Shown piece after piece: positions 718-63,096 of a stretch of DNA of 64,000 nucleotides. Every line of letters starts with the position of its first letter. The first letter of the stretch is position 1. The notes beneath the pieces were generated by a model. That model made no database searches, was not told the origin of the DNA, and saw only the letters and a program-made list of their open reading frames with translations. The stretch lies in the sequence record PZ445526.1; one strand, 5' to 3'. Position numbers and translations under genes: made by a program. Origin of the DNA: a phage.

Positions 718-870
718 TCAATTAGTTGACTTTGTTATAATATCATCAGACGCTTGATTTGTAAACTGGTCTGTGTTATTTTCTTCAAAAATTTTTTCTA
801 CGAATTCCTTGAACGACTCACGTTCCTGAGCTACATTATGCTCGATTACCTTTTCAAGATTATGACTCAT
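718..870 (-). CDS. hypothetical 50-aa protein (not in ORF track)
   Basis: ATG overlaps stop of upstream ORF (ATGA); hydrophilic MSHNLEKVIEHN...; contains the asiA promoter, so coding status uncertain. Confidence 0.25.
   Translation of the reverse strand: MSHNLEKVIEHNVAQERESFKEFVEKIFEENNTDQFTNQASDDIITKSTN
737..766 (-). promoter_or_regulatory. early promoter upstream of asiA
   Basis: minus strand GTTTACA-N18-TATTAT. Confidence 0.45.
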
Positions 871-1145
871 TCGAAATAATCTTCAATTTCATAATCATGG
901 ACATAAATCATTATAGTTTTTAATACATCATCAATACTTTTTCCTGGAGCTGGAATTACGTAAAAATATCCTGCTTTTGAGAGGTCTTTATAAGTTCCAA
1001 TCAAGAAATCATTATTCTCAAGATGTAGTTCTTCAACTAATTCATTAACAATTGAATGGTATAGGTTTGGTAGAAACTTATATAGCTTTTCTAGAATATC
1101 AATTTTGATTGTGTATTGAACCACGGACTGAGAATCAATAATCAT
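867..1145 (-). CDS. hypothetical 92-aa acidic protein, possible Arn (anti-restriction nuclease) equivalent
   Basis: 92 aa, position just beyond asiA as for T4 arn; assignment by size and synteny only. Confidence 0.45.
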   Translation of the reverse strand: MIIDSQSVVQYTIKIDILEKLYKFLPNLYHSIVNELVEELHLENNDFLIGTYKDLSKAGYFYVIPAPGKSIDDVLKTIMIYVHDYEIEDYFE

Positions 1146-1228
1146 AGACCTTCCCCTTATGTTTCTGTTTGCGATTAGATTCTTTAAACGCTTTCTTCTT
1201 ATCTTTATGGACAGAAGCTTTATTAAAA

Positions 1229-1447
1229 TTATGTTTTGCGACTAAATTGTTCATAGTGCTGAATTACCTCTCTCAAACATTTGCATGTGAATGAAAACTT
1301 TTTAGCTACACCACATTCAAATATATGTTCTCTTAAATCGCGTGTATCGGTATATCCCATCTCAACAATAAAATGCCGTATTAGATTTTTATCTTTATCA
1401 TTGAGAGAATTAAAATAGTCAGATTTTGAATTAATTTCCCTGGCCAA
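1229..1447 (-). CDS. hypothetical protein (72 aa)
   Basis: ORF track; start codon is TTG, true start uncertain; overlaps upstream ORF by 17 nt. Confidence 0.35.
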   Translation of the reverse strand: MAREINSKSDYFNSLNDKDKNLIRHFIVEMGYTDTRDLREHIFECGVAKKFSFTCKCLREVIQHYEQFSRKT

Positions 1448-1727
1448 ATTGAATCACCTTCAGTTGACGTTTTAACTCTTTTATCATTTCTTCGTTCATC
1501 GCAATATAAAGATCGCGTAAAGCAGGTTTTAGCATTCCATTTACCGGAGAACTAAATGGGCATACATAATCTTTTCCTACGAGCTTTTTAGTGAATTCCA
1601 TATTACAGAACTGAAATGCCGGTTCATTGGCATAAATTCCCCAATTAGTTGACATCATTTTATTGGCATATTCTAGTGCCTGGATTTGATTCATAATTCC
1701 ATCAATTTGAAACTTTTTAATATTCAT
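1431..1727 (-). CDS. hypothetical protein (98 aa)
   Basis: ORF track, ATG start, tightly packed in asiA-motA interval. Confidence 0.5.
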   Translation of the reverse strand: MNIKKFQIDGIMNQIQALEYANKMMSTNWGIYANEPAFQFCNMEFTKKLVGKDYVCPFSSPVNGMLKPALRDLYIAMNEEMIKELKRQLKVIQFGQGN

Positions 1728-2188
1728 TAGTAAAGGTCCTCAGAGTAAAGTTCTTTTTCACTACCACCACGTTCAATACGTACTTGTCCAGCGTAAGTTG
1801 CAATAATCATTGCTTCTTCGCGAGTCCAATAATTACTATATTGGTCAATAAATCCTTGGTCATCATCACAAACTTGCTGAGTAACTAATTGAGGTTTAAC
1901 TACATCTAAAACTTCTGCCATATCTTTAGAATAATGACGAGCACCTGGAATAATAAGAGTTCGTCCATCTTTTAATTTAAAACGATTAGCTGCACAGACA
2001 ATTCGTCGTTGATACTTTTGGTTTTCATCCCAGTATGCAGGCTGCCAACAGATTTCAGGAACTTCTTTCAGAATATCTTCTTCTGCGCATTTATAACCGT
2101 GTGCTTTAAATTTTTGAACAAGACTTTCTGGAGTCTCACGAGATAAAGGAACATTCAGCATTTTTAAACGATTAATAAATGGATTCAT
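1727..2188 (-). CDS. hypothetical protein (153 aa)
   Basis: ORF track, ATG start, stop/start abutting neighbours. Confidence 0.55.
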
Positions 2189-2514
2189 TTAAACCATCCT
2201 TTAATACGCTGCCACAAAGTTTTCTGTTGAGCTTTGTTAACACCAATTGAACGAATAACCGGTTGAGATTCCTGGAATTCTTTATAATCGGCAAGGTAAA
2301 TTTCGTAAGCTGCATCTGTAAAGGAACTTATCGCTGCCATGAAATTATTGCGAATACCTACTGGAGCATCTTTACTTTCACGAATAATCATGTATTTACC
2401 AGTCTTAATCTTTACAATAGTTCCAAGATAAGCTCCATGGTACCAAATATCCCAACCCTCTTGAGTAGGTTCTGCACAACGACGAAGTTCATTGACAATT
2501 TCTAACTTGTTCAT
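2185..2514 (-). CDS. hypothetical protein (109 aa)
   Basis: ORF track, ATG start, 4-nt overlap with downstream ORF. Confidence 0.55.
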
Positions 2515-2524
2515 TATTTATTCC

Positions 2525-3160
2525 TCATAGTTCAGATGCTACAGTGATTACAGCTTCAATGTTTTCTACTGAGCGTTTAATGTCAAGATACACATTACCG
2601 TTTTTAGCGATTTTACATGACATTCCGATGTCAGTAAATTTCTGAATATGATGTTCCATCATTTTGTATCCAAAAATTCGCATATTTCCATTGTTGTTAA
2701 TTTCAAAATTACGAATTCCGTGAGTGCGTTTTTCTAAAATAGCGAGATAGTTACTGCGATAAGTTTCAACCTTTTTAAGAACAAATCCATTTTCATCTAA
2801 AAGTTTTAACATGAAGTCTTTATCTTCTTCCATATCAGAAGTAATCTCACGAGCTTTACGAGTTGCTCGTTTTTTCAGCAGTTCCGGAGCATTTTCTTGT
2901 GCGTATAAAGTTGCTGCATTTGAAATAATATCCTGAGCTTCACCAGTAATGATTAATCCATCACCAGATTTCTCCACCAGGCCTTTTTTAATCAATACCC
3001 CAATATTACTATTAACTACTGCGTTACCTAAATCTGGATGCACCTCACGAACTTCTGCAGCTGTAATGAAATCTTTCTTAGCAATGGTAATTAAAATCGC
3101 AGCAGTTTTTTCATTCAGAACATCGTTAGAAGCTTTGATGATGTAAGTTACTTTAGACAT
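2525..3160 (-). CDS. motA: middle-transcription activator MotA
   Basis: 211 aa, MSKVTYIIKASNDVLNEKTAAILITIAKKDF...; matches remembered T4 MotA length and sequence; early promoter 3202-3231 upstream. Confidence 0.9.
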   Translation of the reverse strand: MSKVTYIIKASNDVLNEKTAAILITIAKKDFITAAEVREVHPDLGNAVVNSNIGVLIKKGLVEKSGDGLIITGEAQDIISNAATLYAQENAPELLKKRATRKAREITSDMEEDKDFMLKLLDENGFVLKKVETYRSNYLAILEKRTHGIRNFEINNNGNMRIFGYKMMEHHIQKFTDIGMSCKIAKNGNVYLDIKRSVENIEAVITVASEL

Positions 3161-3201
3161 TTTCTAATCTCCGTAATTCTGTATCAGTAGTTGATAGTTG
3201 T

Positions 3202-3231
3202 ATAGTACCATAGAATGCTTTGGTTGTAAAC
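3202..3231 (-). promoter_or_regulatory. early promoter for motA
   Basis: minus strand GTTTAC-N18-TACTAT with TGG extension; conserved leader. Confidence 0.6.
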
Positions 3232-3251
3232 AGTTTTGTGAAAAAATTTTT

Positions 3252-3282
3252 GAAATAAAAAAGGGAGAGCCGAGGCTCTCCC
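3252..3282 (-). terminator. rho-independent terminator
   Basis: GGGAGAGC-CUCG-GCUCUCCC followed by UUUUUUAUUU. Confidence 0.6.
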
Positions 3283-3287
3283 TAAAA

Positions 3288-6198: not shown

Positions 6199-6312
6199 TC
6201 ACATAAATCCAAAATAAGCGTTTAATACATCAATCATTAAAACGATTGGGAATATACTCAAAACTATTAGTATTATAACTACATTCCATATAGCTTTAAC
6301 AATCTTTTTCAT
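6199..6312 (-). CDS. 37-aa membrane peptide
   Basis: Track ORF 6199..6408 runs through promoter 6341-6370; ATG at 6312 follows leader SD GGAGGA; MKKIVKAIWNVVIILIVLSIFPIVLMIDVLNAYFGFM. Confidence 0.45.
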   Translation of the reverse strand: MKKIVKAIWNVVIILIVLSIFPIVLMIDVLNAYFGFM

Positions 6313-6340
6313 TTTCTGTTCCTCCGTAGTTGATAGGGTA

Positions 6341-6370
6341 ATAATACCACAGAGGAACAGTCTTGTAAAC
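6341..6370 (-). promoter_or_regulatory. early promoter cassette
   Basis: GTTTAC-N18-TATTAT, TGG-extended; near-identical to cassette at 58078-58107. Confidence 0.55.
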
Positions 6371-6554: not shown

Positions 6555-6818
6555 TCATAGCTCAATCTCAGCGATTTTCATTTCATTACTATTAATAGCC
6601 GCTTTAAGACTATCTGAAAGAATTACATTCCAGTGGTCATTCATATGACCATTAACTAAGCGTGTAATTTCTTCAGGAGTTGAAAAATAAGGCTGATCAG
6701 ACTCCCAATGCGATAATCCTAAGCGAGTATAAATCATGCCTTCATCATCGCTAGAATATTCAACTGACACAAACTCATCAGTTATTTTATGCTTAGCATA
6801 ATAAAATTTAAATTTCAT
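6555..6818 (-). CDS. hypothetical protein (87 aa)
   Basis: Track ORF trimmed to ATG at 6818 behind leader SD GGAGAG; upstream early promoter 6853-6882. Confidence 0.5.
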   Translation of the reverse strand: MKFKFYYAKHKITDEFVSVEYSSDDEGMIYTRLGLSHWESDQPYFSTPEEITRLVNGHMNDHWNVILSDSLKAAINSNEMKIAEIEL

Positions 6819-6852
6819 TTTACTCTCCAAATCCATATCAGTTGATAGTTGT

Positions 6853-6882
6853 ATAGTACCACGGTCCTTGTGGTATGTAAAC
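6853..6882 (-). promoter_or_regulatory. early promoter cassette
   Basis: GTTTAC-N18-TACTAT, TGG-extended. Confidence 0.6.
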
Positions 6883-7455: not shown

Positions 7456-7510
7456 TTAGACTTTCCTTTATGTCGGAATCACTGATATTCATATAATAAA
7501 TCATAATTTC

Positions 7511-7537
7511 TCTTAAAACAAAAGGGCCGAAGCCCTT
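7511..7537 (-). terminator. UUCG hairpin, terminator-like
   Basis: AAGGGC-UUCG-GCCCUU then UUGUUUUAAGA. Confidence 0.5.
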
Positions 7538-7539
7538 AT

Positions 7540-7734
7540 TTATTTGAATTGTGCAATTCTTTTCTCTAGACATTCAGCATAAGATTTCATTGAGATGAAC
7601 TGTGAAAGCAGCAGTTCTTGCTCAACTGCACTAACCGTTAGAAACTTTGTGCTTTCTAAAAATTTGCTCAGTGCATTAATTTTGAGCATTAATTGATCGT
7701 ATTCTTCTTTTACTCGTGCTTGATAACCTAACAT
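7540..7734 (-). CDS. hypothetical protein (64 aa)
   Basis: ORF track, ATG with SD AAGGAAAA; bracketed by two UUCG hairpins. Confidence 0.5.
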   Translation of the reverse strand: MLGYQARVKEEYDQLMLKINALSKFLESTKFLTVSAVEQELLLSQFISMKSYAECLEKRIAQFK

Positions 7735-7748: not shown

Positions 7749-7764
7749 AAGGGCCGAAGCCCTT
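7749..7764 (-). other. UUCG hairpin overlapping the rIIB stop codon
   Basis: AAGGGC-UUCG-GCCCUU; no U-tract. Confidence 0.4.
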
Positions 7765-8701
7765 ATTTAAATTGTTCAGTAACGTCTTCAACTACTTCGT
7801 ATTGGCAGGTACGCATTTTAGCATCGTTGTAATCAATCGGAATTGATACTACATCACGCGGATGTACTTTAACTTTTACAACTCGGCTAGTTGAACTGCC
7901 AAAGTGACGAATATAAGATTTAGAACACACATGTAGACCACGAGAACAAGTTTGTGTATCATCGTCATTCACACGAGTACGCGGCATTTTAACTACTTTA
8001 CCAGGACTGTTATCAAAGGTATTTGAGTGACAGTCAAAGTAATTACTACGAACTACTTTCCAAGCATAGAAGTAACCATCTTCTGTAATTTCAATATCGT
8101 TTGCTACCAAGAAATCAAAAAGTCGAGATACCGCTTTCTGGCTTGGGTTTTCCAGCAGATTTTCCAAGAACGGAAAATAAAATTCAAAGTTTTCGCCTTT
8201 TTCCATCGAATCAAGAATACGATCAACCAAACCAGACCGCAATTCAATATTTTGATAGAATAAGCTTCCACCTTCAATTCGAACATCGCCGGAAATATAT
8301 TTTTCAACAGCGCGACGAACATTAATTTTTTGTGCCGCTTCTTCTAACTTATCTGCTACGAGCAGATTAAGAATTTCCTGGAAGTTTGAATGAGTATTAG
8401 GAGTTGCGTTATAAGTTACACCGTCAACAGTAATTGAAATGAATTTTTTAGAAGCATTCCAAATAATATCAGATTTAGCAGCTGGAGCAATAACTGCATC
8501 GCTATTAACTTTAACTGTAATATCACCGCTAATAGTAACTGTAGAGCGTTCTGCTTCTTCAGCATTTTTCAAAACACGACGGATTGTGTCAACCGATACA
8601 CCTTGCCAATCAGCCAATTCCTGCTGAGTGTAATTACCACTTGAATACAGTTTAACAATTTCAGCTTGTTCGTTTTTGGTCAGGCATTTAATATTGTACA
8701 T
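7763..8701 (-). CDS. rIIB: rIIB protein
   Basis: 312 aa, immediately downstream of rIIA; size and synteny match T4 rIIB. Confidence 0.9.
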   Translation of the reverse strand: MYNIKCLTKNEQAEIVKLYSSGNYTQQELADWQGVSVDTIRRVLKNAEEAERSTVTISGDITVKVNSDAVIAPAAKSDIIWNASKKFISITVDGVTYNATPNTHSNFQEILNLLVADKLEEAAQKINVRRAVEKYISGDVRIEGGSLFYQNIELRSGLVDRILDSMEKGENFEFYFPFLENLLENPSQKAVSRLFDFLVANDIEITEDGYFYAWKVVRSNYFDCHSNTFDNSPGKVVKMPRTRVNDDDTQTCSRGLHVCSKSYIRHFGSSTSRVVKVKVHPRDVVSIPIDYNDAKMRTCQYEVVEDVTEQFK

Positions 8702-10900: not shown

Positions 10901-11104
10901 TTAATTCATATTACGCTTAATAACTTCAGCAACTTCTAGTAATTCATCTTTAGTTGCGGTGTCGGATTGAATTTTATCTCTAATATCCTTAAAGCGGTTT
11001 TTAAATTCTTCGGCTTCTCCCATATCGAAAAAGCGTTGAATGATTCTATATTCTCGATGAACTGCTTTATCAAAAAGTTCTAAATTTACTCTATATGATT
11101 TCAT
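10901..11104 (-). CDS. hypothetical protein (67 aa)
   Basis: ORF track, ATG with SD GAGGA, driven by early promoter 11130-11159. Confidence 0.5.
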
Positions 11105-11129
11105 TTCAATATCCTCATTTGCCCAATTA

Positions 11130-11159
11130 ATTATACCACATCCTTGTGGTAAAGTAAAC
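11130..11159 (-). promoter_or_regulatory. early promoter cassette
   Basis: GTTTAC-N18-TATAAT, TGG-extended; near-identical to 55101-55130. Confidence 0.6.
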
Positions 11160-12976
11160 TACTGGCTCATCCATTCTTTACGAAGGTCAGCATTATCTCC
11201 CATGAGCATTTCAAAAAGCTCTTTCCAGTTCTCAGGAAGTTTAACAACATCATATACTGGATTTTGAATCATTTCACGATATTCAGATTTTTCCAAAGAG
11301 CCAAGTCCTTTAATATAACGGATGCTATGTTTAGGTAGAGCATCTTTGGCACTCTCATATTCAGCGACTGTATAAAACCATTCTTGTTTTTTACCGACCT
11401 GAGCGATGATTACAGGAGTTTTGACAAAGCGAATTCGTCCTTGCTCAAACAATTCTGGCCAATTACTAAAAAACCCGAGCAGAGAAGGATAAATGCTTCC
11501 TAGACCATCATGGTCAGCATCAGTCATAATAGCAATATTGCGATAATTCAAGTTTTCAGCTTTTTCACCAAGAACTAGACCAGTGATTGCGCAAATATCA
11601 AATAGTTCTTTGTTTTTAAGCATATCGGCATATGACATACCCCAGCTATTAAGAACTTTACCACGCAATGGATAACCACCATGAAGTTCTTTATCGCGAA
11701 CATCAATAAGATATCCGATAGCAGAATCACCCTCAGTCAAGAAAAGAGTAGTATCAGCATCTTTACCACAAAGGTTCGCTTTGATATGTTTATGAACCTT
11801 AGCTTTAGAAGCCTTTTTAGCTGCTTTAGTTTCAGCTGCTTTTTCTGCTGCCAATTTACGGGCCAAGGCAGCTTCAATAATTGGCATCAAAATAGCTTCA
11901 TTATTTAGAATAGCGCGTGAAATCTTTTTAGCATCAAGCTGAATATGACTACGAATTTCGCCAAATGGAGAAGTCAAACGCTCTTTAGTTTGAGAATCAA
12001 ATCGCATGTTTTTCATATCACGAACAAACATAACGATAGTCAAACATTCTTTAACACGTGCTTTAGTCACATCAATTTTGAACTTACGTTTGATTTGTGG
12101 AATAAGGTCTTCACAAATATCATCCATAACACAATCAATGTGATGGCCACCATTCTTAGTATGAATGTTATTGACGTACGTCAACTGACGAAAACCATCC
12201 GGTGAACGACCAACCGCAATAGAACAATTTTCTTGTTCTTGAACAATAGCATGTTCATCATACTGTCGTGCATATTTCTTAAAATTGCCCTGAACCTTTT
12301 TACCATTAAAGGTAAATTGAATATCAGGATAAACAACAGCAAGTGTCTGGAGACGATCTAGTGTAATGTCAAGATAAACTTGGGACAGCTCATTAGTTTC
12401 AAATGACATAAAATCAGGAATGAAAGTAACACGGGTTCCTTTCCATTTTCCAGGAATATCTTCCCATGATTTATTTTCCATGCCATTTGAACAACGAACT
12501 ACAATATTATTTTGACCATCACCAGTTTCACCAACAAACATCACAGAAAAAATGTTTGTCAAACTAGAACCAACACCATTCATACCGCCAGTGACGCGTT
12601 CTTTATCATCGCCGAAGTTACCACCTGCTTTTGGAATAGTCCAAGCAGCAACTGGACCAGGAATTTCTTCACCGGTAGGTGTTTTAACCATAGCCTGTGG
12701 AATACCACGACCGTTATCTTCAACTGTTACTTGATTGTTTTTAATAGTAACATTAATTTTATTTGCGAATTTAAACTTAGTACGAATACCTTCATCGACT
12801 GAGTTATCGATAATTTCATCAATAAGCTTAACAAGACCAGGTACATACTGAACACTTTCCCATTTACCAAACAGAAAGCGCTCATGCATTTCATTAGCAG
12901 AAGAGCCAATATACATGCCGCTACGCTTTTTGATATGTTCAATATCGCTCAGAATTTTAATTTCATTCTTAATCAT
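11159..12976 (-). CDS. 39: DNA topoisomerase II large subunit gp39 (GyrB-like), unsplit
   Basis: 605 aa from ATG at 12976; GHKL ATPase motifs (EIIDNSVDE, DNGRGIP, GGMNGVGSS) and Toprim (EGDSA, DADHDG) in one ORF. Confidence 0.9.
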   Translation of the reverse strand: MIKNEIKILSDIEHIKKRSGMYIGSSANEMHERFLFGKWESVQYVPGLVKLIDEIIDNSVDEGIRTKFKFANKINVTIKNNQVTVEDNGRGIPQAMVKTPTGEEIPGPVAAWTIPKAGGNFGDDKERVTGGMNGVGSSLTNIFSVMFVGETGDGQNNIVVRCSNGMENKSWEDIPGKWKGTRVTFIPDFMSFETNELSQVYLDITLDRLQTLAVVYPDIQFTFNGKKVQGNFKKYARQYDEHAIVQEQENCSIAVGRSPDGFRQLTYVNNIHTKNGGHHIDCVMDDICEDLIPQIKRKFKIDVTKARVKECLTIVMFVRDMKNMRFDSQTKERLTSPFGEIRSHIQLDAKKISRAILNNEAILMPIIEAALARKLAAEKAAETKAAKKASKAKVHKHIKANLCGKDADTTLFLTEGDSAIGYLIDVRDKELHGGYPLRGKVLNSWGMSYADMLKNKELFDICAITGLVLGEKAENLNYRNIAIMTDADHDGLGSIYPSLLGFFSNWPELFEQGRIRFVKTPVIIAQVGKKQEWFYTVAEYESAKDALPKHSIRYIKGLGSLEKSEYREMIQNPVYDVVKLPENWKELFEMLMGDNADLRKEWMSQ

Positions 12977-13003
12977 CACTTATCCTCGTTTGGTTTCGGG
13001 AAT

Positions 13004-13029
13004 ATTATACTCCGGTAATCATAAAGCTA
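13004..13029 (-). promoter_or_regulatory. candidate middle-type promoter for gene 39
   Basis: TATAAT preceded at 11 nt by MotA-box-like AGCTTTAT, directly after a UUCG hairpin. Confidence 0.35.
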
Positions 13030-13046
13030 AAGGCCCGAAGGCCTTT
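13029..13046 (-). terminator. UUCG hairpin downstream of lipoprotein gene
   Basis: AAAGGCC-UUCG-GGCCUUU. Confidence 0.45.
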
Positions 13047-14497: not shown

Positions 14498-14770
14498 TTA
14501 ATTAAATAGTGGAGCGATACGTTTCAGAAGAGTAGCAACACCTTTAGCGAATTTTACATCATGAAAAACAGTTTCTTCTTCTGTAACAACACGAACTTTA
14601 ATATTTTCGCAATCCCAATTTTTGCGAACAATCTTCAAAAGCTGTAGTAAATCTTTACATTCAGCAATATCAATAACACATCCACGAGAATCTTCCATTA
14701 TCGCACGATAACCGTAAGCCATACCATAATCGTTGAAAGATTGTTCGATGATGATGATTAAGTTTTCCAT
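14498..14770 (-). CDS. hypothetical protein (90 aa)
   Basis: Track ORF starts at TTG inside leader; ATG at 14770 follows SD GGAGAA. Confidence 0.5.
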   Translation of the reverse strand: MENLIIIIEQSFNDYGMAYGYRAIMEDSRGCVIDIAECKDLLQLLKIVRKNWDCENIKVRVVTEEETVFHDVKFAKGVATLLKRIAPLFN

Positions 14771-14794
14771 TTTATTCTCCAAGTTGTTTTCTGT

Positions 14795-14837
14795 ATCAGT
14801 AGTTGATATTGATATAGTACCATAATCAACTACTGAT
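14795..14837. repeat. perfect 13-bp inverted repeat with 17-bp spacer
   Basis: ATCAGTAGTTGAT (14795-14807) / ATCAACTACTGAT (14825-14837); spacer contains TGGTACTAT -10-like element. Confidence 0.7.
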
Positions 14838-14867
14838 GTATATAGTTTTATGAAAAAATTTTAAACT

Positions 14868-15359
14868 TTATGCACAGCGAGCTTTGCTATAGTGTTTAAT
14901 CCAACTTTCAGGAATGACTTTGTATGTTCCTAAAAATACCACATTATACAACTTAACACCGTCTTCTACCCATTGATCGGTAATGTATGCACACATAGCG
15001 CGAGTACGATTAACAACACCTTCCTCACCTTCAGTAAATTCAAACTCATAAGGAGCAACGAACTTGATAGCTTGACCGAGTTTCCACTTAAAGTCTACGC
15101 CTACATGCGAAGTATCAATCGTTTCAATTCCTTTAGCAGGAACAGCTTTCAAAAACGCAGACTCAAGAAATTTCGCACGAACATAGCCAAACTGGGGTTT
15201 AGACTTTCCATCTTTAGGAATGATACGAACTTTTACTTCAGAATCTTCATCTTTAACACCATGCTTAAGCTGAATGCTTACAACTTCGACCAATTTTCCT
15301 GCTGCTTTAGAGCGGGATTTATCAGATACACGAGCTAATTCACCAATATTAATAATCAT
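14868..15359 (-). CDS. hypothetical 163-aa protein, probable MotB equivalent
   Basis: Size (T4 MotB ~162 aa) and position between gene 39 and dexA; early promoter 15403-15432 upstream. Confidence 0.5.
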   Translation of the reverse strand: MIINIGELARVSDKSRSKAAGKLVEVVSIQLKHGVKDEDSEVKVRIIPKDGKSKPQFGYVRAKFLESAFLKAVPAKGIETIDTSHVGVDFKWKLGQAIKFVAPYEFEFTEGEEGVVNRTRAMCAYITDQWVEDGVKLYNVVFLGTYKVIPESWIKHYSKARCA

Positions 15360-15402
15360 AGTTATCTCTCACTTGTTAAAAGATTTTATACTCCACGGGA
15401 CC

Positions 15403-16377: not shown

Positions 16378-16404
16378 TTTATTATCCTCAGTAGCTATGG
16401 TGTT

Positions 16405-48633: not shown

Positions 48634-50447
48634 TGGTGTTTAACCCTATGCATGATTTCTTTATTTTTACCGAGATTAAATCCGCGTTCGTTCGGATTTC
48701 CCAAATAACCACATGTTCTTCTTATTGTGTTCATCTTTTTAGGATCAGTTTCTCCACAAATAGAACAAACAAATCCGTTTTCAGTAGGAGTCATTTCATG
48801 GGTACTTCCACATGTAAAACATTTATCTACTGGCATATTAACACCAAAATAATCTAAATGTTGTGCAGCATAATCCCATACGGCCTCAAGACCCTTTAAG
48901 TTATTTTTCATATCAGGAAGTTCAACATAAGAAATGTGACCACCTGTCGCAATGAAATGATATGGTGCTTCACGAGAAATCTTTTCAAACGGAGTAATAT
49001 TTTCTTCTACTGAAACATGGAAACTGTTAGTGTACCAGCCTTTATCGGTAACATCTTTTACGCTTCCATATTTTTCTGTATCGAGTTTACAGAAGCGATA
49101 ACAAAGGTTTTCAGCAGGAGTCGAATATAAACTAAAAGCAAATCCAGTTCTTTCAGTCCACTGTTTAAGATGAGCATTCATTTTAGTTAAAATTTCCTGT
49201 CCAATATCACGACCGACAAGAATATTCAATTCATGAATACCAATGTATCCTAGGGACACTGAACTTCTACCGTTTTTAAATAACTCAATTACGTCGTCAT
49301 CAGGTTTAAGACGAACCCCGAATGCACCTTCTTGGTAAAGAATAGGAGCAACAGTCGCTTTAACTCCTTTTAAGGAACTAATTCTACACATCAAAGCTTC
49401 AAAACACAAATCCATTCGTTCATTGAATAATTCAACAAATTTATGTTCATTGAACTGTGTTCCAATATAAGAATCTAACGCGATGCGAGGAAGATTCAGT
49501 GTTACAACACCAAGATTATTACGTCCATCAAGAATTTCATTACCAGTCGAATCTTTCCATACGCTCAAGAAACTACGGCAACCCATTGGAGAAACAGGAA
49601 CAGATGAACCAGTGATAGCTTTATTATTCTTAGCTGAAATAATATCAGGATACATCCTTTTGCTTGCGCACTCTAGAGCAAGCTGCTTAATATCATAGTT
49701 CGGATCGTCTTTATAAAGATTAACGCCTTCTTCGACGAACATAACAAGCTTAGGAAAAATAGGAGTTATCCCATCACGACCGAGACCTTTAATACGATTT
49801 TTCAGAATTGCTTTCTGAATCATTCGTTCAGTCCAGTCAGTTCCCGTACCAAATGTAATTGTTACAAAAGGAGTCTGTCCGTTTGAACTAAAGAGAGTAT
49901 TTACTTCATATTCATAAGCTTGGAATGCATCGTATACGTCTTTTTCTGTTTTAGATTGAGCATAATTCAACGCATCAGCGATTTGCCATTTTTCTGCATC
50001 CTCAATATGTTTTGCATAGGTGCGTTTAACATAAGGAGAAAGTACTTTATCTACATTCGCAAAAGTCGTTCCGCCGTATTGGTGAGAAGCAACCTGTGCA
50101 GTAATTTGTGCCATAATTGCAGTAGCAACACCGATTGATTTAGGAGTTTCAATCTGTGCATTACCAAGCTTAAATCCATTCTCAAGCATTCCTTTTAAAT
50201 CTACTAAACAACAATTAGTAAATGGAAGAGCAGGGGAATAATCAATATCGTGGAAATGGATAATTCCGCTTTCATGCGCTTTCATAATAAAAGACGGGAC
50301 CATATTTTTGGCAATGTGTTTAGACACAATACCAGCCATAAGGTCCCGTTGAGTTGGAAAAACACGAGAATCTTTATTAGCATTCTCGTTTAAAAGGTCT
50401 TTATTAGTTTTATGAATCAATCCTTCAATTTCTTTTTCAATTGTCAT
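48630..50447 (-). CDS. nrdD: anaerobic ribonucleotide reductase NrdD, uninterrupted
   Basis: 605 aa continuous ORF; C-terminal zinc ribbon and glycyl-radical motif RRTCGYLG. Confidence 0.9.
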   Translation of the reverse strand: MTIEKEIEGLIHKTNKDLLNENANKDSRVFPTQRDLMAGIVSKHIAKNMVPSFIMKAHESGIIHFHDIDYSPALPFTNCCLVDLKGMLENGFKLGNAQIETPKSIGVATAIMAQITAQVASHQYGGTTFANVDKVLSPYVKRTYAKHIEDAEKWQIADALNYAQSKTEKDVYDAFQAYEYEVNTLFSSNGQTPFVTITFGTGTDWTERMIQKAILKNRIKGLGRDGITPIFPKLVMFVEEGVNLYKDDPNYDIKQLALECASKRMYPDIISAKNNKAITGSSVPVSPMGCRSFLSVWKDSTGNEILDGRNNLGVVTLNLPRIALDSYIGTQFNEHKFVELFNERMDLCFEALMCRISSLKGVKATVAPILYQEGAFGVRLKPDDDVIELFKNGRSSVSLGYIGIHELNILVGRDIGQEILTKMNAHLKQWTERTGFAFSLYSTPAENLCYRFCKLDTEKYGSVKDVTDKGWYTNSFHVSVEENITPFEKISREAPYHFIATGGHISYVELPDMKNNLKGLEAVWDYAAQHLDYFGVNMPVDKCFTCGSTHEMTPTENGFVCSICGETDPKKMNTIRRTCGYLGNPNERGFNLGKNKEIMHRVKHQ

Positions 50448-50958: not shown

Positions 50959-51462
50959 TCAAGTATTGTAAAACATTTGATGCAATCGCTTATATTGCCG
51001 AATCTTTTGGTCAGAAAAAGAAATTTGAGTTTCAAGCCATTCAATGTACTCTGCGGCAGCTTGCATTAAATTTCCTTCATAACCATCGTTATTTTCTTGT
51101 GCAGCTAATTTAGCTAATGCATATGAAATGCGTTCACCTTGAAAAGCGGCTTTAGGTTTATGAATAGCTTGATCAACTCGTTCTACGACTTCTTCAATTT
51201 CGCCATTTTCTACTGATTCAGTATTCCACAAACACCAATACGTAATTGGCTTATCGTAGATGTTAATAATCTTTCCATCAGAAAGTTCAATTTCAATAAT
51301 TCCAGTATCAGGTTCTATATCATCTTCACATTCTTTTGCAAGTTCACGAACTTTAAAGACAGTACCTGCACTAAGTTCCGGCCAGTAATTACATAGCCCT
51401 GTATCAGCACGATTAATTCTAAACCACTTATCTACTGTAATCATGTCCCATCTCCATATCAA
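50959..51462 (-). CDS. hypothetical protein (167 aa), possible Pin (protease inhibitor) equivalent
   Basis: Position just beyond gene 49 and similar size to T4 Pin; no sequence recognition. Confidence 0.4.
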   Translation of the reverse strand: MIWRWDMITVDKWFRINRADTGLCNYWPELSAGTVFKVRELAKECEDDIEPDTGIIEIELSDGKIINIYDKPITYWCLWNTESVENGEIEEVVERVDQAIHKPKAAFQGERISYALAKLAAQENNDGYEGNLMQAAAEYIEWLETQISFSDQKIRQYKRLHQMFYNT

Positions 51463-51567
51463 TTAAGTCATTTATCGTTGGTTCATTATATACTGTTTCT
51501 TCATCAGTGTAAACCGGTTCTTCCGGCTCTGGCTCTACAGTTTCCCATCTAGCCGCCCACCAAGGTT

Positions 51568-54070: not shown

Positions 54071-55072
54071 TTACTTAATTAACTGTAAAGCTTGTTCCAG
54101 ACGATCAAGACGATTAACAGATTCTTCCCAAATCCTTTTAGCCTGCTCATATTCTTTCTGCGCTTTATTAGAAATTTCTAGAACTTCTTTATAAGCTTTT
54201 TCTAATGCAATAACTTCTGGACGAATTTCTATCGGTTCAGGTGAATCATCAAGACATTCCATTAGTTCCTCAAGGGTAGTTTCTTCTTTAGGAGTATTCA
54301 CAATTTCATCACATTTTTGTTGGTAAATTTCTTTATCAGTAGGTGAGTACGCGCACTTTACTTCACGAAGACTAATTACAATTTTATATCCTTCCCAACC
54401 GCATATATTCTTAAAAGGATAAGTATGAATATTTTCTACTGTTTCCATACAAAGTAATGCGGTCTCTAATTGACGAGTTATAGTGCTAGCAATTGAGAAA
54501 AATTTATTAATATTCTTTTGGTTAGTTTCTGGTGTAAAAAATCCATAATTCACAAAAATAGATACTTTATTTTTATCAAGTTCATATTCTTTTATGATAA
54601 TCATATCAGAAGCCAAAGGATGAATTTGACGATAATCGCCATAACATAATTTAGAAGCTGATTTTAGAATCTGTCCTTTGAAAAGTCTGAAATTACTAAT
54701 CCAACGACGAGTAAAAATATTCTCAGGGTCTTCTTTATTATTAAGATGATAAGAATTAACATCACCGAACCAATTATATCCTACTACATCTTTGGTTCGT
54801 TTAATTTCTTTCCCAAAATTACCAAGAATATCCCGATTAACCAAATATGAAAGAAGACGAGACTCTTTAAAGGTTTTCTTGATAACATCTTTATCTACAC
54901 GGCTAGAAATTTTACGAATTTCATGAATAAATTTAGTAGAAGAAACAATACTTGCATCAACACTATTGAGCCATTGATTGATAATAGAAAGAACGCTATT
55001 TTGGCCAAACATCGGTATAGCTTTATCATCAATAACGCTATTGAATGATTTGATATATTCGTTACGAGTCAT
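54071..55072 (-). CDS. coiled-coil family protein B (333 aa)
   Basis: Track ORF trimmed to ATG with SD GAGGAG (upstream part is promoter DNA); paralog of protein A; C-terminal coiled coil. Confidence 0.6.
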   Translation of the reverse strand: MTRNEYIKSFNSVIDDKAIPMFGQNSVLSIINQWLNSVDASIVSSTKFIHEIRKISSRVDKDVIKKTFKESRLLSYLVNRDILGNFGKEIKRTKDVVGYNWFGDVNSYHLNNKEDPENIFTRRWISNFRLFKGQILKSASKLCYGDYRQIHPLASDMIIIKEYELDKNKVSIFVNYGFFTPETNQKNINKFFSIASTITRQLETALLCMETVENIHTYPFKNICGWEGYKIVISLREVKCAYSPTDKEIYQQKCDEIVNTPKEETTLEELMECLDDSPEPIEIRPEVIALEKAYKEVLEISNKAQKEYEQAKRIWEESVNRLDRLEQALQLIK

Positions 55073-55100
55073 ATTAATCTCCTCAGTAGAAAGTAAGAAC

Positions 55101-55130
55101 ATTATACCACATCCTTGTGGCAAAGTAAAC
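55101..55130 (-). promoter_or_regulatory. early promoter cassette
   Basis: GTTTAC-N18-TATAAT, TGG-extended; near-identical to 11130-11159. Confidence 0.6.
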
Positions 55131-56158
55131 TAGTTCAGTGCATTTAGTGCATTGTTCAGTTTAGAACGTTGCTTTGTCAGATTTTGAACCCTTGACTGAG
55201 CTTGTTTTAACACCTTTTCAGCTTCTAACACTTCATTAGTTGCTTTAACGAGTTCAGCATCTACTGCTTTAAGAGACTTCTCAATCGCATCTGCATGCCA
55301 TTTTTCAACAGGTTTAAGACTCGGATTTTCAATAGGAAGAAAATTCACTTTATTGAATTTCCATGCATCCTTATTACCTGAACTATACATCCAAAATTTA
55401 GGATCGTTTGATAAGTAATTGGATAAATTTAAATTTAAGTTATCTTGTACTTCTTGCTTTTTCTCTTGTGTAACTTCGTCCTTTCTCAAAAAATCATATT
55501 TAAATGAAACAATCATATCAAGTTCATATGATGTTGTATCTAACTTAAATCGTTCAAAACGAGGTAAAATCTTAGATTGAACAGCAGCAACAACATCCAT
55601 ATACTTAAATGCTTCTGTCAACTGTGATTTAAGGCATTCACAAATTGAAAGAGAATTTTTTGTATTAGGTTTAAAGCTAATTCGTGCAGTTCTATTATTT
55701 TCTTTTAACGGTCTTACTTCCATCTGAAGAGTATAACCATCAAATTTCAGGTTCTTTAAGTTAATATCAGAACCTTTTAATCGACTTGCTGTGGACAAAA
55801 TTTGCTTTAATTGTTTACGGAATAGAGCAATAAATCTCCATTCAAGACGATAATGATTTGGATTAAAAAATCCTGTTGATAAATCGACCTTACTTTGACC
55901 AACGCCTTGAACAAATAGAGGATTTTTATAATCAATAGTTTTACAGAAATCGGTGAGCTGTTCACGAGCAGTCATTTGCGTAATATACCCTGCTTTACTA
56001 AAATTACGCACCCATTCACTGCTATTCGTATACTTAAAGTGATGAATAACACGATTAACTTTATCAGGGTCTAAATTATTTTCACACAAAAATGTCATAA
56101 CATCACGAGTATAGCTGGCATTACGAACCATATCTTCAATTTGAGAACGAGTTTTCAT
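55130..56158 (-). CDS. coiled-coil family protein C (342 aa)
   Basis: ORF track; N-terminus MKTR... like protein A; C-terminal coiled coil. Confidence 0.6.
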   Translation of the reverse strand: MKTRSQIEDMVRNASYTRDVMTFLCENNLDPDKVNRVIHHFKYTNSSEWVRNFSKAGYITQMTAREQLTDFCKTIDYKNPLFVQGVGQSKVDLSTGFFNPNHYRLEWRFIALFRKQLKQILSTASRLKGSDINLKNLKFDGYTLQMEVRPLKENNRTARISFKPNTKNSLSICECLKSQLTEAFKYMDVVAAVQSKILPRFERFKLDTTSYELDMIVSFKYDFLRKDEVTQEKKQEVQDNLNLNLSNYLSNDPKFWMYSSGNKDAWKFNKVNFLPIENPSLKPVEKWHADAIEKSLKAVDAELVKATNEVLEAEKVLKQAQSRVQNLTKQRSKLNNALNALN

Positions 56159-57525: not shown

Positions 57526-58049
57526 GCGAGTACCGTCTTTAACCGTTCTTCAAACTTCCGAAGAGTATTTTGGCGTTCAGCTCTTTGCTTTTTGTAAGTT
57601 TCAATACGCTCTGAAATGAGAGTGTATCGTTCATTTACTGATTCTTTCATAAAATCAGGAATTTCACGAGAAGCTTTAATCTCGTCAAATTTATCAATAA
57701 CAGCTTGCTCTTCAGCAATTAAGTTATCATACATCAAAATATCTTTCTTGATGAACTCAATATCTTCTTGAGTTACGCGAGATAATTTAGATGCTTTATC
57801 CTTTTTGTACTGTTCGTTAGTATCACGAGACCAGTGTAATGTACGATTTTTATTCGTATTCTTGTAAATTTCTACAATACCAATCTCATCAATAATAACG
57901 ATCCAATTCCAACGGGATTTGTAAATTTGTCCTCCGTCAACCGTGATTTCACCTCCGATTGAGATGTCATTAAAGAACTTGCTTTGTGCTTCAGATTTAA
58001 ATTTACCATCATTGTAGTTTACCAAGTTGAAAATATCTTTAGCATTCAT
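57522..58049 (-). CDS. hypothetical protein (175 aa)
   Basis: Track ORF trimmed to ATG after leader SD GGAGGA; early promoter 58078-58107. Confidence 0.55.
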   Translation of the reverse strand: MNAKDIFNLVNYNDGKFKSEAQSKFFNDISIGGEITVDGGQIYKSRWNWIVIIDEIGIVEIYKNTNKNRTLHWSRDTNEQYKKDKASKLSRVTQEDIEFIKKDILMYDNLIAEEQAVIDKFDEIKASREIPDFMKESVNERYTLISERIETYKKQRAERQNTLRKFEERLKTVLA

Positions 58050-58077
58050 TTTCTGTTCCTCCGTAGTTGATAGTTGT

Positions 58078-58107
58078 ATAGTACCACAGAGGAACGGTCT
58101 TGTAAAC
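58078..58107 (-). promoter_or_regulatory. early promoter cassette
   Basis: GTTTAC-N18-TACTAT, TGG-extended; near-identical to 6341-6370. Confidence 0.6.
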
Positions 58108-58513: not shown

Positions 58514-59482
58514 TTATTTCAGAAGAGTAACCTCAGCGATTTCTTCCCAACCGTTTTTGTCGGTCATAATAAAGTCAGCAAGATAAAGAGCAGTACGCAG
58601 TGAAACATTGCGTAAACGATTAACATTGACTTTCATCCATGATAATGCTTTATAAGTTTCTTCATCAGAAAGACCGCGCTTTTGCATCATGTCGGTTGAA
58701 AGAATAACATCTTCAACCCTGACCATAATTTCTTCATTAGTGTGAACACCCAAATCCAAATAAACTGAGCGGGACACTAATGCTTGTAAATGTGGAGCAA
58801 GTTTAGTACCACGGTCTAATTCGCGGTCAATGTCAACGTTTGTGATAAAAACAATCGTTCCTTTAAATTCAAACTCACGCTCAATGCCTTTTTCTTCTAA
58901 GTAAGAAGATGCAGTGCTCCAGCAGACTTTACGGGTCTCTCCAGTGTCCAGAGCAGCTTTCAGAAGATTAAGAATGTCCATATCAGAGAAAACATCCACA
59001 TCATCAATCAAAAGGACAGAATTCTCTTCACGATTATTCCAAAGCTGTTCATAAAGACCAATACCAGAGATTTTACCATTAATGCTTTTATATTCAATGT
59101 ATCCAATATCATTTGCTTTATTTAAAGCTTTATCTAAAGAATACGTTTTACCAATACCCGCCGCACCAGAGATAATTAATGAACGAATGTTTCCGTTAAT
59201 AATACCATTCGTCATCATTCCCATAACATTAAATCTTTTATTAATGCGGGTTTTCATATCTTCATATGATTCTTTAACTTCTTCAACTTTTACACCATCA
59301 TATGAAATGTCTGATTTGTAAACCCAAACACCGCGACGTTTACCGTCAATTTCAACAAAAACTTTACCATCTCCTTGTGCATCTACCGGAGCATTATCTG
59401 GGAACCATTCACCTAAGAGCTCAAAAGTTCCAGAGATTTCTTTACCGAAGTAGATACCCTTATTGATAGTTACAGTTTTCAT
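58514..59482 (-). CDS. AAA+/P-loop ATPase (322 aa)
   Basis: Walker A GAAGIGKT, Walker B LLIDDVD, sensor-1-like FITN; trimmed to ATG behind leader; early promoter 59517-59546. Confidence 0.6.
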   Translation of the reverse strand: MKTVTINKGIYFGKEISGTFELLGEWFPDNAPVDAQGDGKVFVEIDGKRRGVWVYKSDISYDGVKVEEVKESYEDMKTRINKRFNVMGMMTNGIINGNIRSLIISGAAGIGKTYSLDKALNKANDIGYIEYKSINGKISGIGLYEQLWNNREENSVLLIDDVDVFSDMDILNLLKAALDTGETRKVCWSTASSYLEEKGIEREFEFKGTIVFITNVDIDRELDRGTKLAPHLQALVSRSVYLDLGVHTNEEIMVRVEDVILSTDMMQKRGLSDEETYKALSWMKVNVNRLRNVSLRTALYLADFIMTDKNGWEEIAEVTLLK

Positions 59483-59516
59483 TTTATTCTCCAAATCCGT
59501 ATCAGTTGATAGTTGT

Positions 59517-59546
59517 ATAGTACCATAAAGCTTTATGCTTGTAAAC
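59517..59546 (-). promoter_or_regulatory. early promoter for AAA+ ATPase gene
   Basis: GTTTAC-N18-TACTAT, TGG-extended; directly after terminator 59566-59593. Confidence 0.6.
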
Positions 59547-59565
59547 CGTTTTGTGAAAAAATTTT

Positions 59566-59593
59566 GAAATAAAAAGGGAGCCCGAAGGCTCCC
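59566..59593 (-). terminator. rho-independent terminator after nucleotidyltransferase gene
   Basis: GGGAGCC-UUCG-GGCUCCC followed by UUUUUAUUU. Confidence 0.6.
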
Positions 59594-59595
59594 TA

Positions 59596-60609: not shown

Positions 60610-61067
60610 TCAGCCTTATATTCAATAACAGGACATACTTTAGCTTTACGAGCTTTTAAAAATTCAACGATAACCGATTTCTTGGGTTGAATAGGAGGTA
60701 AACCTTTATACGCCCTATCAATATTTTCTACGTGTAAAGCATAATCCTTTTTCCATTTATAATCTTTATATTTTTCACGCAAATGTGCAGGAATAACAAA
60801 TGAACCGATAATAAGTAAAACAACCAAAAGCGCAAGTATAAATGCTGATGGAAGCAAAGTCCATAAACTACCAAAAATAATCCAACGCTGTAGGCTTTCT
60901 GCACAAATAATTGTTAGCCCTACGAGTATAGCACATCCAAAAATAGAAACGAAAAATGTAGGAATGGCAATAGACCAAAAATATGCGCATAGTGTCTTAG
61001 GTCGTTGCCATTCATCGTTAAACAATTTGAATAATTTATAGTGCCAAGAGTTTTCATTAATAATCAT
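60606..61067 (-). CDS. hypothetical membrane protein (153 aa)
   Basis: ORF track; about three hydrophobic helices. Confidence 0.55.
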   Translation of the reverse strand: MIINENSWHYKLFKLFNDEWQRPKTLCAYFWSIAIPTFFVSIFGCAILVGLTIICAESLQRWIIFGSLWTLLPSAFILALLVVLLIIGSFVIPAHLREKYKDYKWKKDYALHVENIDRAYKGLPPIQPKKSVIVEFLKARKAKVCPVIEYKAE

Positions 61068-61069
61068 AA

Positions 61070-61591
61070 TTATCCTTTCATTGAAGGCGTAACGGTTGTT
61101 AAATACTTAATCATAGCTTCAGCTTCTGATTTTGATAATGAAATTTCTCCATTGTTTTGACGAATAGAAATAAAATCCGGATGACGGTCACCACCAGCTT
61201 TTAAAACACACATATAAGTATCAACTTCGCCTTCAATATTTGAAATGATTGAAGCAGTTCCACATGAATGCGGTTTTTGATAAATCAATACAGCTTTTCT
61301 TCCGCCATTTGACTGCTCATAGGCTTTTAATACATCAAACAAATCAGTTCTTTTATCAATAGCTAAAATGTTATTTTCATCTTCAATGTTAAATCCTTCG
61401 GATACTTCATAAAGCGTTACCCATAAATCACCAATGTCAATAACAGCATTTACTTTTCCACGGCTTTCAAGGGTATGACAAATTTTCTTGATTTCGTCAT
61501 AACTCATTTTAATAATATCATCTCCTTGAATAAGGAAGATGTCATTTTTAAATTCAACACGAATTAAACCGCTTCCACTTGAAATAAACAT
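61070..61591 (-). CDS. hypothetical protein (173 aa), tandem paralog E
   Basis: Shares GFNIEDEN and ...EAEAMIKYLTTVTPSM motifs with 61598..62143. Confidence 0.55.
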   Translation of the reverse strand: MFISSGSGLIRVEFKNDIFLIQGDDIIKMSYDEIKKICHTLESRGKVNAVIDIGDLWVTLYEVSEGFNIEDENNILAIDKRTDLFDVLKAYEQSNGGRKAVLIYQKPHSCGTASIISNIEGEVDTYMCVLKAGGDRHPDFISIRQNNGEISLSKSEAEAMIKYLTTVTPSMKG

Positions 61592-62143: not shown

Positions 62144-62247
62144 TACATACTCCTCTGAATCATATCAATAATGTTGTTCACCAGATTATAAGTAAACATT
62201 GGGTAATTATATTGAATCATCACATACACAACAAACAAAACTTTCAT
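62143..62247 (-). CDS. 34-aa leader micro-ORF (not in ORF track)
   Basis: ATG with strong SD AAGGAGAAGAGA just downstream of promoter 62276-62305; stop overlaps next ATG (TAATG). Confidence 0.3.
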   Translation of the reverse strand: MKVLFVVYVMIQYNYPMFTYNLVNNIIDMIQRSM

Positions 62248-62275
62248 TCTCTTCTCCTTGGCAGTTGACAAGATT

Positions 62276-62305
62276 ACTATACCATAACCTTGCCAACTTG
62301 TAAAC
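62276..62305 (-). promoter_or_regulatory. early promoter cassette
   Basis: GTTTAC-N18-TATAGT, TGG-extended. Confidence 0.55.
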
Positions 62306-62470
62306 CATTAAATGACGTTTTCGATAAAATTCTGAAGCTTTGTGTGAGCATCAACCATGATTTTCATTTCTTCTTTGGCGAAAGCTATACCTCTTTCCCG
62401 AGAAGAACATTCATAGTCAGAAACTGCATTAGCATATTCTTCAATTAGCTTCATTAAAAACATCTGCTTT

Positions 62471-62665
62471 TCAGTTTTCATTATTCCACCTAATCATTTC
62501 AAGATATTGAACTAACTTAGCTTTAGATTTATCCAAATCCTTTTTAGCTGCTTCTATACCGTCGTATGAATATCCTTCACAATGCTCAACTGCTAATTGA
62601 TATGAATCTATTTCAATATCACGTGCTAATTTAATGATTTTTTCAAACTGTTCACGTGTTAGCAT
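62471..62665 (-). CDS. hypothetical protein (64 aa)
   Basis: ORF track. Confidence 0.45.
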   Translation of the reverse strand: MLTREQFEKIIKLARDIEIDSYQLAVEHCEGYSYDGIEAAKKDLDKSKAKLVQYLEMIRWNNEN

Positions 62666-62667
62666 AA

Positions 62668-62886
62668 TTAAACTCTCGTATTATGATCGATAATTTCATC
62701 AAGAAACATATCTAACGCTTCTAAAGCATTATCAACTTTAGCTTCAAATTCTTCAATACCTGATAAGGCAAAGTTAATGCGTTCCTCATCTGCTTTACGA
62801 ATTAAAGCTACCAATTCCTTAATTTTATCCGCTTGTTCGATACTAATCATTATTCCACCACATATGAAAGAGAGAATATTGCACAC
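62668..62886 (-). CDS. hypothetical protein (72 aa)
   Basis: ORF track. Confidence 0.45.
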
Positions 62887-63038
62887 GCCATGTGAGTTGC
62901 AACTTCATCACACATATTATAACGTTTCTTGAGAAGTTCTACAAGTTCTTCACTAGTAACTTCATCCATGTCGACGAAAAAATCACCATTAATGATGACG
63001 TAGATATTTCCTTCTTGATTGAGTGCTTCAATTTTCAT
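62850..63038 (-). CDS. hypothetical acidic protein (62 aa)
   Basis: Track ORF trimmed to ATG with SD GAGGAGAA; upstream part is promoter/leader DNA. Confidence 0.45.
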
Positions 63039-63066
63039 GATGTTCTCCTCTTTATCCGATAGTTGT

Positions 63067-63096
63067 ATAGTACCACAGCTCAAACGGAAAGTAAAC
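63067..63096 (-). promoter_or_regulatory. early promoter cassette
   Basis: GTTTAC-N18-TACTAT, TGG-extended; directly after terminator 63104-63129. Confidence 0.6.

Follow-up and report, generated by a model that had tools for sequence, protein, structure and literature searches.

The 64,000-nt stretch of phage DNA that we examined (record PZ445526.1; hereafter, the window) carries a family of dispersed repeats in which a promoter motif, GTTTAC-N18-TAnnAT, runs into a leader that ends in a Shine-Dalgarno (SD) sequence and the start codon of the downstream open reading frame (ORF). These repeats are very probably sigma70-dependent early promoters of a Tequatrovirus, together with their leader and SD sequence, that have been copied and exchanged between loci and have occasionally acted as crossover points.

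We found exactly 17 minus-strand copies of the motif, the outermost at 737–766 and 63067–63096, in agreement with the count given in an initial annotation of this DNA. That annotation had placed an additional A/T position before the gap, and its pattern taken literally (GTTTACW-N18-TANNAT) matches only once, as the notation is off by one. With GTTTAC-N18-TAnnAT the pattern is correct, and in sigma70 terms the layout is a G followed by TTTAC(A/T), 17 bp, and the −10 element, i.e., TTTACW-N17-TAnnAT. One additional minus-strand copy has a 19-nt gap (27141–27171), and the plus strand has a single chance match, at 58017. With gaps of 16 to 19 nt allowed, the window gave 19 matches, 18 of them on the minus strand, compared to 1.1 ± 1.0 matches on both strands (maximum, 3) when the window was shuffled. 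A weight matrix trained on the 17 N18 copies and then scanned over both strands yielded 21 minus-strand sites and zero plus-strand sites above threshold. Here and below, a copy is named by the position of its −35 G or of the corresponding base; the good copies added by the matrix were 62305 and 27674 (both TATAGT) and 14843 (degenerate −35). In an unbiased repeat search of the window, the cassettes came out as the largest dispersed direct-repeat families, and this search also surfaced a candidate with a 20-nt gap at 20069, which is missed by the exact pattern and lies below the weight-matrix threshold. All scans combined gave 22 copies plus this one candidate.

Probable identity with the early promoters of T4

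The window is 95 to 97% identical to several hundred Tequatrovirus (T4-like) genomes. Its gene order is asiA, motA, rIIB/rIIA, gene 39, dda, modA/B, genes 41, 43, 45, 46, and 55, nrdD, and the nrdC.x/mobD region, with practically all genes on the minus strand. The 21 genes served by cassettes are asiA, motA, ndd.4, an ORF at the ndd.6 site, rIIA.1, an ORF at the cef site, motB, motB.2, modB, mrh.2, sp, dmd, imm.1, 55.4, 55.6, pin, nrdC.4, nrdC.8, nrdC.10, mobD.2, and one small ORF. For every cassette, an orthologue occupies the same site in the six relatives that we compared, T4, T2, PYps32T, IME537, vB_SsoM_113 (Sso113), and LH2. Gene positions come from a manually curated map that draws on the ORF list and the T4 annotation and that replaced two automatic gene-calling attempts in which many starts had been mis-set. 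On this map, a gene start lies 55 to 91 nt (median, 59) past the −35 G for each of the 21 cassettes; the cassettes are co-oriented with their downstream genes, every copy being on the coding strand.

Cassettes in the window (coordinates, strand, description):
703–766, minus: asiA cassette; −35 G at 766, ATG at 705, extended −10 TGA; upstream part within asiA.1; T4 orthologue at 161211
3158–3283, minus: motA cassette; hairpin (3262–3283), UP element, −35 G at 3231, leader, ATG
6310–6370, minus: ndd.4 cassette; near-twin of the 58107 cassette
6816–6882, minus: cassette of ORF 6555–6818 (ndd.6 site in T4); mosaic of a CCACAAGGA-family spacer and a 59546-family leader
11102–11161, minus: rIIA.1 cassette; topoisomerase gene ends in a TAG that overlaps the −35; differs from its twin, 55130, at 1 position in 30
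14768–14843, minus: cassette of ORF 14498–14770 (cef site in T4); −35 degenerate (ATATAC); UP, TGG, TACTAT, and leader conserved
15357–15432, minus: motB cassette; without TGn; TAG of the upstream gene overlaps the −35
16375–16434, minus: motB.2 promoter cassette
19999–20069, minus: srd candidate; GTTTAC-N20-TATAGT; ATG 68 nt past the −35 G
21347–21405, minus: modB promoter cassette
23440–23536, minus: mrh.2 cassette; hairpin 3′ end at 23515, −35 G at 23498, ATG
27110–27171, minus: sp cassette; 19-nt gap
27613–27676, minus: dmd cassette; TGG TATAGT; TAG of gene 41 overlaps the −35
33077–33146, minus: imm.1 cassette; reference copy of the conserved leader
46884–46977, minus: weak copy before 55.4, inside gene 55.5; without TGn; low matrix score; ATG 91 nt downstream
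47360–47422, minus: 55.6 promoter cassette
51442–51514, minus: weak copy before pin, inside gene 49.1; without TGn or UP; lowest training score; ATG 70 nt downstream
55070–55132, minus: nrdC.4 cassette; TAG of nrdC.5 overlaps the −35; twin of 11159
58047–58107, minus: nrdC.8 cassette; twin of 6370
59480–59594, minus: nrdC.10 cassette; hairpin 3′ end at 59575, UP, −35 G at 59546, leader with RegB consensus GGAGAATAAAA, ATG
62245–62305, minus: mobD.2 cassette; TGG TATAGT
63036–63129, minus: cassette of ORF 62850–63038; hairpin 3′ end at 63112, −35 G at 63096, ATG

The candidate at 20069 is probably a further early promoter, upstream of srd and with an unusual 20-nt gap, while promoter function is uncertain for the copies at 46977 and 51514.

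Read as a promoter, each unit comprises, in order, an A/T-rich UP element, the −35 element G-TTTAC(A/T), a spacer of 17 bp with TGn at its end, the −10 element TA(C/T)(T/A)AT, the leader, the SD sequence, and the ATG, with a terminator hairpin additionally preceding some units. The −35 sequence GTTTAC(A/T) (−36 to −31) is exact in 21 copies, or 22 with the 20069 candidate, and reads ATATAC at 14843. Between TTTACW and the −10 there are 17 bp in 21 copies, 18 bp in 27171, and 19 bp in the candidate. Of the 22 copies, 17 have TGn, in 15 cases as TGG. The UP consensus consists of an A-run, a T-run, and AAA, from −19 to −4 relative to the −35 G, and six copies have TTTTTCACAAAAC in common in this region. 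The UP element is absent where a stop codon abuts the −35: in four cassettes (11159–11161, 15432–15434, 27674–27676, and 55130–55132), the preceding gene (gene 39, motB.1, gene 41, and nrdC.5, in that order) ends in a TAG that overlaps the −35 G, so that there is no room for a noncoding UP element. We also noted, in the motB cassette (15395–15424), a 6-bp inverted repeat GGGACC...GGTCCC that flanks the −10 TATAAT; it is mostly conserved in relatives, with no compensatory changes seen.

According to the initial annotation, several copies sit directly after a hairpin terminator. This is true for 4 of 22 copies (63096, 59546, 23498, and 3231), where a strong hairpin with a T-run lies 16 to 34 nt upstream, but not for the remainder: two more copies have a hairpin with a T-run within 90 nt, and by the same criterion the others have none. 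The upstream hairpins mostly carry UUCG-type loops.

Published T4 early promoters have GTTTAC at −36 to −31, a GT-rich/TGn extended −10, and an A-rich UP element, as well as consensus regions beyond the sigma70 elements (PMC1524935, PMC2988021). For the promoter-plus-stem-loop (PeSL) cassettes of the PST/T4 pair, the consensus is TTTACW-N17-TAYWAT, in a unit that includes an AT-rich region, SD, and ATG (PMC4122927). The window motif equals both the published T4 early-promoter consensus and the PST/T4 PeSL consensus. The window copies have in common with T4 early promoters (Hinton 2010, PMC2988021; Nolan et al. 2006, PMC1524935) the −35, the 17-bp spacing, TGn, TAnnAT, and UP, and likewise their orientation, their location before early genes, and their orthologous positions. 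We see no essential difference, the exceptions being 46977, 51514, and 15432, which are without TGn or within a coding region, and 14843 with its degenerate −35. The initial reading of the repeats as T4-type early-promoter/leader cassettes is thus supported by the Tequatrovirus origin of the window, the T4-orthologous sites, and the published consensus. An identity as middle promoters, dependent on MotA/AsiA, was rejected: the copies have no MotA box (a/t)(a/t)TGCTT(t/c)A, which in middle promoters is centered at −30 and takes the place of the −35, and TGCTT is found at the −35 position in no copy.

In T4, the host RNA polymerase fires early promoters immediately after infection, and the cassettes of the window would likewise drive the first gene of each early transcription unit right after infection. 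The leader, of about 20 to 35 nt, ends in a strong, mostly GGAG, SD followed by ATG. The conserved leader described in the initial annotation, ...CAACTATCAACTACTGATACGGATTTGGAGAATGAAATG, is found at 33146, with close variants at 59546, 6882, 3231, and 14843, and we could reproduce the spurious N-terminus ...GTIQLSTTDTDLENE (the ...GTIQLSTT... reading of the leader) to which it had drawn attention. Of the 21 cassette genes, 15 have GGAG no more than 18 nt from the start codon, compared to 8 of 107 others [odds ratio (OR) 31, P = 1.3e-9]; the remaining six cassette genes have GAGG-type or other SDs without GGAG. Strong sites for RegB/S1 have the consensus GGAGRAYARAA (Uzan & Miller 2010, PMC3014915), which, with at most one mismatch, has eight minus-strand matches in the window, seven of them in cassette leaders. 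The GGAG enrichment and these consensus matches point to the 3′ half of the conserved leader as the known combination of a strong SD with the RegB cleavage site of early mRNAs. Folding predicted the leaders to be unstructured, with z-scores near 0; an Rfam search of the window gave no match, and a tRNA scan of the window found none. The RegB/S1 targets of T4 early mRNAs likewise have a GGAG SD in an unstructured, A-rich initiation region of the first early cistron, whereas for the window cleavage is a prediction from sequence and 6 of 21 cassette genes are without GGAG. The A-rich GGAG leader would thus support efficient translation and, as a RegB/S1 target, later the shut-off of the early mRNA.

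Similarity among copies and constraint across relatives

The initial annotation had claimed more conservation among the copies than sigma70 recognition requires, and had pointed to two pairs. For 6313–6370 versus 58050–58107, where it gave about 7 differences, we count 6 in 58, and 11130–11159 and 55101–55130 indeed differ at 1 of 30 positions. We compared such similarities with a null in which each alignment column was permuted among the copies, so that the consensus was preserved. Two spacer pairs match at 17 of 18 positions (permutation maximum, 15) and four leader pairs at 21 to 24 of 25 (permutation maximum, 20). Spacer and leader pairs therefore exceed all column-permutation replicates, and the claim holds.

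The similarity is mosaic, in that different segments group different copies. Copies 59546 and 6882 have the leader in common with a different spacer; 58107 and 6370 have spacer and leader in common with a different UP region; 11159 and 55130 have only a 32-bp core in common, which starts at the TAG stop of the upstream gene. Mosaic cassettes are also found in relatives. In T2, the imm.1 cassette has an imm.1-type upstream flank, but over core and leader it agrees with the T2 nrdC.8 cassette at 58 of 61 positions, compared to only 44 of 61 for the orthologous imm.1 cassette of the window. At motA, the upstream cassette of Sso113 has a spacer of the nrdC.10 type.

Orthologous cassettes from four to seven phages were aligned for 19 cassettes, with all seven phages for 8 of them. 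Variable columns amounted to 0.9% in the −35, 4.5% in the −10, 8.8% in TGn, 6.9% in the leader, 6.0% in the SD region, 11.2% in UP, and 13.0% in the spacer, with 8.0%, 6.7%, and 19.8% at codon positions 1, 2, and 3, respectively. The core elements and the leader are thus constrained like coding positions, and the −35, the −10, and the leader are under purifying selection. The spacer is more variable than codon positions 1 and 2 (P = 0.003) and somewhat less so than position 3 (P = 0.011). The occurrence of near-identical paralogous pairs with such weakly constrained spacers argues that the extra similarity stems from copying or conversion between cassettes, rather than from a sequence-specific requirement or an added binding site. 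In line with the published PeSL model, the phage recombination system would copy and exchange units between loci because these have 60 to 100 bp of similar sequence in common, and occasional crossovers at the units would bring in, eliminate, or replace the small ORFs driven by them.

Indel breakpoints and cassette-flanked ORFs

Colinear BLAST chains against the six relatives resolved into 53 distinct indels or replacements. We attributed 17 of these events to homing endonucleases, an intron, or the dam region, and none of the 17 ends in a cassette zone (−60 to +95 of the −35; 5% of the window). Among the 36 other events, 16 have at least one end in such a zone. Because whole-gene indels must end between genes, we ran the test at the level of the 128 gene junctions, with the following outcome.

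Junctions with a breakpoint, all events: cassette 11/21, other 35/107; OR 2.3, P = 0.07
Junctions with a breakpoint, homing-endonuclease events excluded: cassette 11/21, other 25/107; OR 3.6, P = 0.009
Junctions of at least 50 nt, non-homing-endonuclease events: cassette 10/18, other 4/18; OR 4.4, P = 0.043

Breakpoints at individual cassettes were found at 6813–6825 (6882 cassette) in T4, T2, LH2, and Sso113; at 14760–14764 (14843 cassette) in four relatives; and at 23542–23550, just upstream of the hairpin of the mrh.2 cassette, where three relatives have a replacement. The LH2 deletion of nrdC.4 begins at 55053, and the motB.1/motB.2 deletions of T2 and Sso113 end at 15433–15434. For the latter deletions, in-register recombination between 16434 and 15432 was considered as the cause and rejected, because the joints fall out of register and are not the same in T2 and Sso113; they are as compatible with selection for a kept promoter as with recombination between cassettes.

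Relatives also carry ORFs inserted as cassette-ORF-cassette units, of 321 bp at motA (PYps32T and Sso113) and of 336 bp at sp (IME537). At the nrdC.10 site, we observed three alleles: a single cassette (window and T4), a 582-bp insert with an ADP-ribosyltransferase-like ORF (T2), and a different insert (Sso113 and IME537). The T2 allele (PV648364, 62222–62805, corresponding to window 59541–59578) has an extra 486-nt ORF between nrdC.11 and nrdC.10 that is annotated as "RNA polymerase ADP-ribosylase" and flanked by two terminator-promoter cassettes; the insert of Sso113 and IME537 at this site is unrelated to the T2 ORF. At imm.1, extra ORFs are inserted at the leader/ATG in T2, whose copy has an nrdC.8-type core, and in PYps32T; the joint falls in ATGAAAAT, with short microhomology at the leader/ATG. 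These cassette-flanked insertions and mosaic cassettes fit the modular shuffling proposed in the initial annotation; its suggested link to synteny breakpoints is, as a statistical association, only moderate and falls short of significance for all events.

The cassettes resemble the published PeSL cassettes (Arbiol et al. 2010, PMC2839356; Comeau et al. 2014, PMC4122927) in their composite unit, their consensus, and their location beside indels and replacements of small ORFs, and cassette-ORF-cassette units occur in relatives of the window too. An example given by Comeau et al. (PMC4122927), the ndd.4/.5 exchange at the ndd.4/ndd.6 site, corresponds to the 6.3- to 6.9-kb region of the window. 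They differ in that a strong stem-loop lies directly upstream of only the 4 copies named above, a minority thus having the stem-loop half of the PeSL definition; in that the breakpoint association is moderate under the junction null; and in that PeSL cassettes are also taken to form mini-circles through recombination between neighbors, while the window units are known from sequence. The morons of lambdoid phages are likewise small accessory ORFs with their own promoter and sometimes a terminator, placed between resident genes, whereas in the T4-like window the shared cassette sequence itself appears to be exchanged between loci.

Relative to T4, the window is without segF, dam, segA with beta-gt, mobB, mobC, the nrdD intron with I-TevII, and mobD (sites at 23800–24800, 30617–31564, 44106–44134, 48613–48633, 49909–49912, and 60617–61573); in place of segA/beta-gt there is an ORF of 282 aa, located where T2-type phages have the beta-glucosyl-HMC-alpha-glucosyltransferase. 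Most of the large indels trace to these differences from T4, none of which has an end in a promoter cassette. The large subunit of topoisomerase II (11159–12979) is encoded by one undivided ORF of 606 aa rather than by separate genes 39 and 60; the gene-60 bypass segment and mobA, both present in T4 and LH2, are missing from it. None of the six relatives has the 215-bp insertion with a 73-aa ORF that the window carries between regA and gene 43 (36040–36263). This insertion borders on a UUCG hairpin repeat at its left end (36047) and involves no promoter cassette. A second dispersed repeat family, AAGGGCCGAAGCCCTT, occurs at 7505–7549, 7749–7776, 13013–13046, 36018–36049, 38174–38219, 42884–42928, and 46523–46568. 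On the transcribed minus strand, it reads AAGGGCUUCGGCCCUU, an intergenic GC-rich hairpin with a UUCG loop that recalls the GGGC...GCCC motifs at T4 deletion endpoints (cited in PMC2839356).

Alternative explanations and significance

Several observations count against the assignment as early promoters that are shuffled between loci. Promoter activity is deduced from motif anatomy, orthology, and literature, and the comparison covers six relatives and a hand-curated gene map. TGn is missing from three copies (46977, 51514, and 15432), two of which are embedded in coding sequence, and all three may be weak or nonfunctional. The enrichment of breakpoints under the junction null is modest, and the significance obtained without homing-endonuclease events came from a post hoc exclusion. 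A number of the breakpoints next to cassettes fall at the ATG or slightly beyond the core, where 8 to 24 bp of microhomology suffices, and the ends of the motB.1/motB.2 deletions are out of register and different from each other. Selection to retain a promoter before the surviving gene could also explain part of the association.

One could take these points further and suppose that the copies are alike only through independent selection toward the RNA polymerase consensus, with no role in recombination and with breakpoints that fall between genes anyway. The very strong purifying selection on the −35 and −10, the nonsignificant enrichment for all events, and the many cassette-free indels that likewise end at junctions with short overlaps are all in its favor. 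We nevertheless regard it as improbable: the pair identities in spacer and leader beat every permutation replicate although orthologous spacers vary at 13%, so consensus alone does not explain the pairs; moreover, some phages carry the cassette core of another locus at a given locus, and inserted ORFs of relatives are flanked by two cassettes. A conserved spacer could instead be the binding site of an additional regulator, from the phage or the host, that controls some of the early promoters. The initial annotation had suggested this for a palindrome, CCACAAGGATGTGG, that it described as frequent in the spacer; we found it in two copies and one variant only. Among 20 copies, five do have a perfect stem of at least 5 bp in the spacer/−10, where 1.7 would be expected (P about 0.02), and the CCACAAGGA spacer is invariant or nearly so in seven phages at three loci. 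However, three of the five palindromic copies belong to one subfamily, and the excess is gone when this is counted once, for which reason we rejected the palindrome as a general feature; its right arm is simply the TGn/−10 consensus, spacers as a class exceed codon positions 1 and 2 in variability, and nothing found in this analysis indicates a candidate binding protein. An additional binding site is thus very improbable.

The cassette-ORF-cassette units also look like integron-like gene cassettes, and Arbiol et al. (PMC2839356) raised the possibility of autonomous mobile elements moved by a dedicated site-specific recombinase. Here, crossovers occur all along the unit, from the region before the −35 through the core to the leader/ATG, with no single conserved core site; T4 general recombination needs only short homology (PMC2839356), and nothing found in this analysis indicates a cassette-associated recombinase. 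We consider such elements extremely unlikely. Returning to promoters copied by general recombination, a bolder extension can be imagined, in which frequent gene conversion would cause concerted evolution over more than 50 kb, with preferred crossovers at the UP/−35 boundary and the leader/ATG. The cassette would then be a portable "express early, then shut off" module that domesticates new ORFs, and the TAG-TTTACTTTRCCACAAGGATGTGGTATAAT copies (11159 and 55130; spacer variant, 6882) might bind an extra factor. We think this extension unlikely, if conceivable.

Early promoters, their conservation beyond the consensus, RegB-cleaved GGAG leaders, and cassette shuffling are all already published, and the window adds no new kind of element. 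The increment is quantitative: variable orthologous spacers set against near-identical paralogous pairs point to copying rather than an added binding site, the cassettes have a strong link to RegB-type GGAG leaders, and the breakpoint association is weaker than it appears once gene junctions are the null. For annotation, the cassettes correct start codons that ORF callers extend through the leader, mark early transcription units, and flag sites of accessory-ORF gain and loss. In this way, the early-transcription architecture of a T4-like phage can be recognized from raw sequence.

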